From positions 6,882,001-6,946,000 of the forward strand of contig NW_025964383.1 in assembly GCF_023055435.1 (NCBI RefSeq): DNA of 64,000 nucleotides. The letters run 5' to 3'. The notes beneath the pieces were generated by a model. It saw only the letters and a list, made by a program, of their open reading frames with translations, had not been told where the DNA came from and did no database searches. A program made the translations under genes and the position numbers. The stretch comes from Haliotis rufescens (taxonomy: Eukaryota). Position 1 is the first letter of the stretch. Every line of letters begins with the position of its first letter. Shown here piece after piece: positions 12,601 to 15,600 of the stretch.

Positions 12601-15600
12601 GAAGTTCTTGACGACTTCCATCTCCAGGTTGTCGTTGTCCCTCCTGTACGGCAGGTCCTGAACAGTCACCACATTACACAGCGGCTGATAGACAACACAT
12701 GCTCACAGACACAAGGAAACAGCACACTGGTTTCATATGTACTCTTAGAGGTAGATAGAGGTAGATACAGGTATTTGGGCAATTAAACCAAACACCTGGC
12801 ACTAGCCATAGGGAACGTTCATCTGCAGTAGTTGTACATGTGTTGTTTGATTCTATCAACATACTTTGCAGTTCACGATGTAGTGAGTGAGTGAGTAGGA
12901 TTTAACAATGTTTTGAACAGTATTACAGATATATCACGACGTGTCAGCTTCATGTGGGAGGAAAGCCTGAAGTAATGCAGGTAACAGACGTTTACCACTT
13001 TGGTGAAACCCATGCACATGGGTATGGTGCTGACAAACCTTGAAACAAACCTTGACCCACAACCCTATGTTTCTGGCATGCCCAAAGGATGCAACACTGC
13101 ACAGCCAAGTGCGACGACTTAGACTACTTGGTCCACCTGTGCCCCAGGTCACGATGTAAGAGAAGTTGCACTGGAGTAGTGAGTGAGTTGGGTTTAATGC
13201 CGCTTTGAACAGTATTCCAGTTATATCACGGCGTGTCAGGTTAATGTGGGAGGAAAGCCCGAAGTGATGCAGGTCTCAGATATTTACCACTTCGTTGAAA
13301 CCCACGAGCACGGGTATGGTGCTGACAAACCTAGAAACATAATCGGGGTGAACCGGGATTCGAACCCACAATCATAGGTTTCTGGCGTGCCCAAGGGGCG
13401 CAACTCTGGGCCACCCATGCCCCCTTGCACTGGAGTAAGCAGCAACCCTGCAGGACAGGCCACAAAATACATTATCAATGTCACTGTACAAACAGAAACT
13501 TACCCCAAAGGCTGAAGGTGCATCTCCCATGCCATCTCCAGGCTTGCTGTTCATGAAGCCAAACAACTCTTCCACCTACAACAGACAAACACGTGTGCTA
13601 ACATCACGTCTCCACTGCAATGAAAAATAATGATGGACTTTGATCTTTATCCCATGCAGATTAAAGGTAATGAGATCTTAACATGCTTAATGACTGACCA
13701 GCTGTGATGTAAGATAAGGAGATGTTAAATGACTGACCAGCTGTGATGTAAGATAATGAGATCTTAATGACTGACCAGCTGTGATGTAAGATAATGAGAT
13801 CTTAATGACTGTCCAGCTGTGATGTAAGGTAATGAGATCTTAATGACTGACCAGCTGTGATGTAAGATAAGGAGATGTTAAATGACTGACCAGCTGAGAT
13901 GTAAGGTAAGGAGATGTTAAATGACTGACCAGCTGTGATGTAAGGTAAGGAGATGTTAAATGACTGACCAGCTGTGACGTAAGATAAGGAGATGTTAAAT
14001 GACTGACCAGCTGTGATGTAAGATAAGGAGATGTTAAATGACTGACCAGCTGTGATGTAAGATAAGGAGATGTTAAATGACTGACCAGCTGTGATGTAAG
14101 ATAAGGAGATGTCAAATGACTGACCAGCTGTGATGTAAGATAAGGAGATGTTAAATGACTGACCAGCTGTGATGTAAGATAAGGAGGTGTTAAATGACTG
14201 ACCAGCTGTGATTCGTTGACTGGCATGTCCTTGGCCTGCTCGGCCTGCTTGATCTGTTGTTTCTTGTACAGGGCCTCCTCCTTCTGCCTGGCTTCCTCCT
14301 CAACCACCTCACGGTCAATCTGGGCCAGCCGTTCCTGAAGGAAGGGCAAAACAGATGGTTAACAGCGACCCCATGCAGGACAAATGAAATATCTTTTCAA
14401 CTACAATATCCTATTTTGCCTTGTTAACTCCGAAGTCCCTACCATGTGATGTCGCTCTGCCTCCTCCTTGGCCTTCTTTGTGTTCATCTTCTTCCTCAAC
14501 TTGGCCTCCTCCTCCTGTCGAATCCGCTCAGCCTCCATCCGTTTCTGGTACTGTAACACACACAGCTCAGACTATACAGGAGCAGGGGGATTGGGGGGAT
14601 AGGGGGAAGTGAGTACCCTCTTCTGGTACTGTAACACACACAGCTCAGACTATACAGGAGCAGGGGGATTGGGGGGATAGGGGGAAGTGAGTACCCTCTT
14701 CTGGTACTGTAACACACACAGCTCAGACTATACAGGAGCAGGGGGATTGGGGGGATAGGGGGAAGTGAGTACCCTCTTCTGGTACTGTAACACACACAGC
14801 TCAGACTATACAGGAGCAGGGGGATTGGGGGGATAGGGGGAAGTGAGTACCCTCTTCTGGTACTGTAACACACACAGCTCAGACTAAACAGGAGCAGGGG
14901 GATTGGGGGGATAGGGGGAAGTGAGTACCCTCTTCTGGTACTGTAACACACACAGCTCAGACTATACAGGAGCAGGGGGAGGGGGGGAGTGAATACACTC
15001 TTCTGGTACTGTAACACACACAGCTCAGACTATACAGGAGCAGGGGGATAGGGGAAGTGAGTACCCTCTTCTGGTACTGTAACACACACAGCTCAGACTA
15101 TACAGGAGCAGGGGGATTGGGGGAAGTGAGTACCCTCTTCTGGTACCTGTAACACACATGGCTCAGACTATACAGGAGCAGGGGGATAAGGGGAAGTGAG
15201 TACCCTCTTCTGGTACTGTAACACACACAGCTCAGACTATACAGGAGCAGGGGGATTGGGGAAGTGAGTACCCTCTTCTGGTACTGTAACACACACAGCT
15301 CAGACTATACAGGAGCAGGGGGATTGGGGAAGTGAGTACCCTCTTCTGGTACTGTAACACACACAGCTCAGACTATACAGGAGCAGGGGGATAGGGGGAA
15401 GTGAGTACCCTCTTCTGGTACTGTAACACACACAGCTCAGACTATACAGGAGCAGGGGGATAGGGGGAAGTGAGTACCCTCTTCTGGTACTGTAACACAC
15501 ACAGCTCACACTGTACCGGAGCAGGGGGATTCGGGGAGGGGGGAGGGAGTTCCCTCTTCTTGTACTGTTACACAGAAATGATACGAACTGGCTTGCCAGG

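Follow-up and report, generated by a model that had tools for sequence, protein, structure and literature searches.

Minisatellites that span an exon/intron boundary have been described in human genes and in amphioxus. In human F7 a 37-bp unit is present in intron 7 in 5-9 copies (Borensztajn et al. 2006, PMC1557585) and, as that report describes it, mutated constructs showed the spare donors to be functional, while the most upstream donor alone was chosen and no intronic silencer was needed for this choice. The same account gives human F7, lamin B2 and PDGF as genes in which the first site only is used, and human 6-16 (IFI6) and CBS as genes in which the two next donor copies are used as well (PMC1557585). 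The amphioxus duplications termed 'mirages' (in Adh3 and the globins BflGb6 and BflGb9) are described as occurring at both types of boundary with splicing undisturbed (PMC3087553).

The locus analysed here lies on the minus strand of the window (the whole stretch of DNA that was analysed, 64,000 nucleotides), in a predicted myosin VIIa gene. It belongs to the class of boundary-spanning minisatellites (F7 type or mirage), with head-to-tail units of 10-160 bp, the junction in the first unit and the exon-proximal site dominant, and as an arrangement it is already known, on the descriptions above, from the five human genes F7, lamin B2, PDGF, 6-16 and CBS and from the amphioxus mirages. It resembles F7 in that its first unit lies across the exon/intron boundary, the spare donors are identical, the most upstream one is that found in transcripts and the units are of near-equal length. 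It differs from F7 in that the myosin unit has a length divisible by 3, stays open for nine copies, takes in 10 exonic bases rather than 4, and is followed by 13 further copies in an invertebrate-like myosin gene; moreover, it is in F7 that the function of the spare sites was assayed. With 6-16 and CBS it shares numerous donor copies beyond the authentic site, but the two nearest spares are used in those genes, whereas no such use was seen here in assembled contigs, where a minor form could go unnoticed. In common with the mirages it consists of invertebrate, minisatellite-like boundary duplications on donor and acceptor sides, with normal splicing and with end units unlike the homogenised middle; it differs from them in that donor and acceptor arrays here bracket one two-exon unit of one gene. 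A literature search for papers on this locus, on abalone minisatellite introns or on splice donors borne by VNTRs gave no useful match, subscription journals being outside its coverage.

The host gene and its boundary-spanning arrays

The myosin VIIa-like gene (496..37177, -) was modelled as 32 coding exons in the window, comprising 1731 codons without a stop; the exon with the start codon was not located, and the low end of the window cuts the gene off. A candidate exon at 8352-8440 was removed from the model, its frame being broken. The identification as myosin VIIa is made on the predicted layout (motor, IQ motifs, SAH and MyTH4-FERM tail) and on the closest sequence, the best PDB match of a downstream exon being myosin VIIa 3pvl (E 5.6e-12, against 3.9e-07 for VIIb). 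The preliminary gene model was 52% identical over 1191 residues to one long myosin VII relative (P0124) and 56% identical over 824 residues to another (P0146).

The exon that ends in the repeat (14203..14334, -) is 132 nt long and encodes 44 aa, comprising a SAH-like helix end and a short linker. Its PDB matches were 5wst and 5wsu only, both myosin VIIa and both weak (E 0.2), which we take to be SAH constructs of myosin VIIa. A single-sequence model predicted a helix at residues 2-35 of this exon, with the donor 9 residues beyond. The preceding exon (14443..14550, -; 108 nt) is separated from it by an intron of 108 nt, and the downstream exon (13504..13575, -) is 72 nt long. The protein alignment across the junction of 14203 with 13575 was ungapped against both of the long myosin VII relatives tested (P0124 and P0146), which are distant, and an insert at this position would therefore split a conserved segment.

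Tandem Repeats Finder placed the donor-spanning minisatellite at 13689..14212 (-), with a period of 39, 13.5 copies and 96% matches; three distal units are of 38 bp, and a degenerate tail extends to about 13662. Each unit is composed of 29 intronic bases and the last 10 exonic bases. The authentic donor, CTG/GTCAGTCA (14195..14205, -; slash at the exon end), has its exon end at 14203 and its first intron base at 14202, and in the units it is reiterated as CTG/GTCAGT. There are 14 such donor-like positions on the minus strand (given as the first intron base): the authentic one at 14202 and 13 spare copies at 14163, 14124, 14085, 14046, 14007, 13968, 13929, 13890, 13851, 13813, 13775, 13737 and 13698, of which 12 retain GT, the copy at 13813 being GA. 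The sequence context from -10 to +10 is identical in most donor copies.

Spare donors 1-9 (13851..14163, -) are in frame and stop-free, and their 11-nt U1-pairing context is the same as that of the true donor. Units 0-8 are each of 39 bp and open in the exon frame, contributing 13 residues per unit (with P in place of S in the first), so that donors 1-9, if used, would add 13n residues (13-117). The nine open units contain five distinct variants, four of them synonymous in the exon frame (1.7 expected; P ~0.05, one-sided and post hoc). These open 39-bp units are the nine exon-proximal ones, and the stop-bearing 38-bp units, which are similar to the 3' flank of the array, are distal: the distal 38/39-bp units (13698..13850, -) carry an in-frame TAA at 13842-13840, beyond which lie all three of the GT copies at 13775, 13737 and 13698. 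The initial annotation had described a 39-bp unit in which the donor follows the final ~10 bases of the exon, about a dozen near-identical donors after the true one, and some nine in-frame, stop-free units just after the SAH region, and its description of the array was borne out on all of these points, the predicted helix ending 9 residues before the donor.

Just upstream of the exon at 13575, an exon-specific ending (...GAATCACAGCTG) is distinguished from a unit-specific one (...ACATCACAGCTG). Elsewhere in the 64-kb window the 39-bp unit had only chance matches of 11-12 bases, and it was not found in metagenome contigs, a search that is uninformative for animal sequence. It was also observed that each 39-bp unit (13701-14166, -) contains a pyrimidine-rich run and a CAG 3 bases before the donor, which together read as a weak acceptor, CTG and a donor. 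A recursive or 3-nt microexon reading of this arrangement was rejected: acceptor-like scores were low (six of the seven scored lie at 2.4-3.7 and the seventh at 7.0; of the gene's 31 real acceptors, three fall below 3.1) and no +3 form was seen in contigs.

A second minisatellite (14543..15574, -), made of 68-78 bp units, mirrors the first on the other side of the exon pair by spanning an acceptor: 14 spare acceptors lie upstream of the true site (14550), which is the last copy of the array. All 14 spare acceptors lead to a stop codon; among five spare copies that were scored, three equal the true site, one is above it and one below. The two-exon unit thus has 14 spare acceptors on its upstream side and 12 spare GT donors on its downstream side, and on both sides the exon-nearest copy is the one seen to be used.

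Donor use in assembled transcripts

A run search listed 24 runs, of which 20 matched part of the stretch; 14 were guessed to be RNA-type, and none was recorded as RNA. The raw-read runs among those listed were three, all small-RNA libraries, and the transcript evidence consists of assembled contigs. Contigs of three of the 14 RNA-type runs (X8, X11 and X13) and of one large run of unstated kind (X15) were compared with positions 14150-14650, an interval that takes in the two exons together with roughly one repeat unit on either side (53 bases from the donor array, 100 from the acceptor array). The share of sampled words was 0.26 in twelve of the RNA-type runs and 0.21 in two, close to the exon-only share of 0.278; as contigs were compared for three of these 14, the shares are not counted as evidence.

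Each of the three RNA-type runs yielded one contig (7335, 8305 and 3502 nt; three studies, three organism labels). All of these skip the 108-nt intron at GT..AG; the match ends at 14201, and the 30 letters that follow are those of window positions 13544-13573. The junction is the exact join of 14203 with 13575 from donor 0, with neither +39 nor +3 in any of the three runs, rare forms being such as drop out of contigs. At the other end of the same contigs the letters are those of 15747-15776, in the preceding IQ-region exon (15745..15867, -), so that 14550 joins 15745 across the acceptor array, past all 14 spare acceptors, and the true acceptor is used in 3/3 contig sets. As these joints are spliced, the three compared runs are therefore transcripts. 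No contig in them covered 14150-14200 or 14558-14650, and none used the second or third donor copy; since contigs drop rare forms, absence is not shown by these counts.

The authentic, exon-proximal donor therefore dominates in mRNA, and a minor +39 or +78 form may exist beside it, as contigs lose rare variants. The initial annotation had proposed a ladder of isoforms lengthened by 13n aa and had named, as the result that would speak against it, junctions joining 14203 to 13575 with no +39n product. With three of three RNA-type contigs joining exactly these positions, the outcome is close to that result and the ladder is left unsupported, to the extent that contigs are blind to minor +39 or +78 forms.

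A protein form carrying the repeat peptide was also sought, with no candidate at 42-137 residues and 0 of 1009 candidates scored at 147-2000 residues; this search was weak, as full-length myosin VIIa is probably beyond the length limit and a query with ordinary exon sequence was also without a match. A cryptic acceptor at 13614 (-), exactly 39 bases upstream of 13575, scored 9.4, the true site scoring 8.4 (leave-one-out). Splicing to it would likewise lengthen the product by 39 bases, with a stop at their end, and a +39 RT-PCR band is therefore ambiguous.

In X15, which bears another organism label, an unspliced contig runs through the exons into the donor array to 14183 with 6 differences over 390 bases (~2% divergent). 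Short contigs of the same run match units of both arrays at depths of 82 and 115, compared to 35 for the unique contig (depth is not copy number, and short-read contigs collapse the array). Both arrays are thus present in a second, ~2% divergent source.

Chance expectation and selection of the donor

The window contains 20 arrays of >100 bp, which cover 18488 of its 64000 bases (29% minisatellite), and in 10 of the 20 the period is divisible by 3. Ten arrays lie within the gene and two of these straddle a splice site, compared to 1.1 expected for random seeds (P of at least two = 0.31); chance alone is thus expected to place an array across a splice site in this repeat-rich window, while a stricter model, in which the seed holds <=12 exonic bases, gave an expectation of 0.27 and P = 0.027 for two. 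When donor-spanning units were simulated at each of the 31 donors of this gene, 5195 of 30132 (17%) kept the frame and had no stop, as did 1737 of 7812 (22%) of those 30-50 bp long; 39-mers at the gene's donors were stop-free at 19 of 31, and five control arrays clear of any exon, with periods that are multiples of 3, had 11 open frames out of 15. As a repeat the donor array is far beyond chance, and its in-frame and stop-free features are near background.

It was further noted that the arrays at 16451-16505, 21520-21720, 25247-26233, 27520-27999 and 35964-36314 have ends 6-78 bases before an acceptor; arrays in the gene seem to lie near the 3' ends of introns more often than near the 5' ends. 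Beyond the exon that ends at 496, the intron opens with ATATCCTT (488-495, -), which we take to be a U12-type (AT-AC) donor motif with its acceptor beyond the window; after a further 27 bases a 54-bp array begins. Two families of dispersed intronic repeats occur repeatedly in the window (1270-1520, 900-1020 and 12870-13450), and one of them looks like an abalone SINE-like element. Broken reading frames at ~17270-19980 (-), in a 4.5-kb intron, look to us like remnants of a tyrosine-recombinase (DIRS-like) retroelement, and fragments at ~49250-49850 (+) and 48740-49025 (+) appear to resemble Tc1/mariner transposase.

The array is in all likelihood an intron minisatellite that happens to contain the exon's donor, of which the first copy is spliced, while the spares probably lose by position and serve no selected function. 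It would have arisen by a local duplication of 39 or 38 bp across the exon/intron boundary, followed by amplification through the ordinary turnover of minisatellites in a repeat-rich genome. The 38-bp units are perhaps the older form; a single added base could then have taken the unit from 38 to 39 and shifted the TAA out of frame, so that both coding-like features would stem from one event. The array would be tolerated if the splicing machinery settles on whichever donor lies closest to the defined exon, which is also the earliest transcribed and yields the shortest exon; the spare copies would then leave with the intron. Slight leakage into the first or second spare copy (+13 or +26 residues) is compatible with this reading and would be noise.

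Two other grounds for the choice of the first donor were considered and rejected. A stronger true donor is not the selector, as the 11-base U1-pairing context is identical at 13 of the 14 positions; the true donor is itself of middling strength (17th of the gene's 31 donors, counted from the weakest). Masking of the spares by RNA structure was rejected as well, the true donor having a mean unpaired probability of 0.26 compared to 0.20-0.53 for 12 copies. Neither strength nor structure singles out the true donor, and position therefore remains; by this exclusion, and from the F7 precedent, we infer that the choice is probably made by position. On the acceptor side it is the last copy that is picked, and exon definition across two close exons therefore fits better than strict 5'-to-3' order, which suggests that the rule is closeness to the two-exon unit. 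The initial annotation had offered, as an alternative to isoforms, decoy U1 sites that must be suppressed: unused decoys fit the data, but the need for suppression is probably mistaken, as the F7 spares are described as losing by position without a silencer (PMC1557585). Against this simple reading, the bias to synonymous variants and the exon-proximal place of the open form are as selection for a harmless leak predicts, a faint hint that keeps weak selection alive.

Alternative readings and significance

The array could also act without any useful isoform, as a quantitative modifier whose copy number alters splicing efficiency or mRNA level, either as a sink for U1 or by leakage to copies behind the stop and nonsense-mediated decay, in the manner reported for the CBS repeat; we consider this unlikely. 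There are 12 intact GT copies within 500 bases, three of them behind an in-frame stop, and the title of a CBS study cited in PMC1557585 ties the repeat in that gene to lower enzyme activity; however, the F7 spare sites are described there as not competing even when strengthened, and no autonomous intronic element was found in that gene (PMC1557585).

Somewhat less probable still is a selected ladder of isoforms, in which copies 1-9 are used in some tissue or stage and separate the tail from the SAH helix by 13n extra residues over a range set by copy number, tuning reach or the folding back of the tail, and in which selection keeps the copies open. The nine in-frame, stop-free copies with the U1 context of the true donor, the synonymous variants (4 of 5, P ~0.05), the confinement of stop-bearing units to the distal end and the use of copies 1-2 in human 6-16 and CBS (PMC1557585) are all as such a ladder would have them. 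However, the donor-0 junction is the only one in 3/3 RNA-type assemblies, frame and openness are near chance (17-22%), and in the five precedent genes use is never described past the two nearest copies (PMC1557585). The insert would also lie ~9 residues past the end of the helix, as predicted by the single-sequence model, and behind a proline, so that a rigid lever would not be lengthened; in a structure prediction of the read-through form the repeat part had pLDDT <50, and its fold was uninformative.

That the repeat was collapsed or inflated in assembly and does not truly lie at the boundary is scarcely credible: the copy number is known from one assembly and one allele, but the X15 contig independently continues the exon into the array to 14183, the short contigs of X15 that match repeat units, from the two arrays alike, are deeper than its unique contig, and the units carry structured variants.

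The tail of myosin VIIa is described as folding back to inhibit the motor (PMC10579538). If the ladder were true, repeat polymorphism would directly set the spacing of lever and tail in a motor that is regulated in this way. As found, with the minisatellite most probably a bystander in the intron, the locus adds one normally spliced case to the boundary-spanning minisatellites already described. It is of modest value as a natural test of splice-site choice, in which the use of the exon-nearest copy on both sides speaks for exon definition rather than for choice by order of arrival alone.
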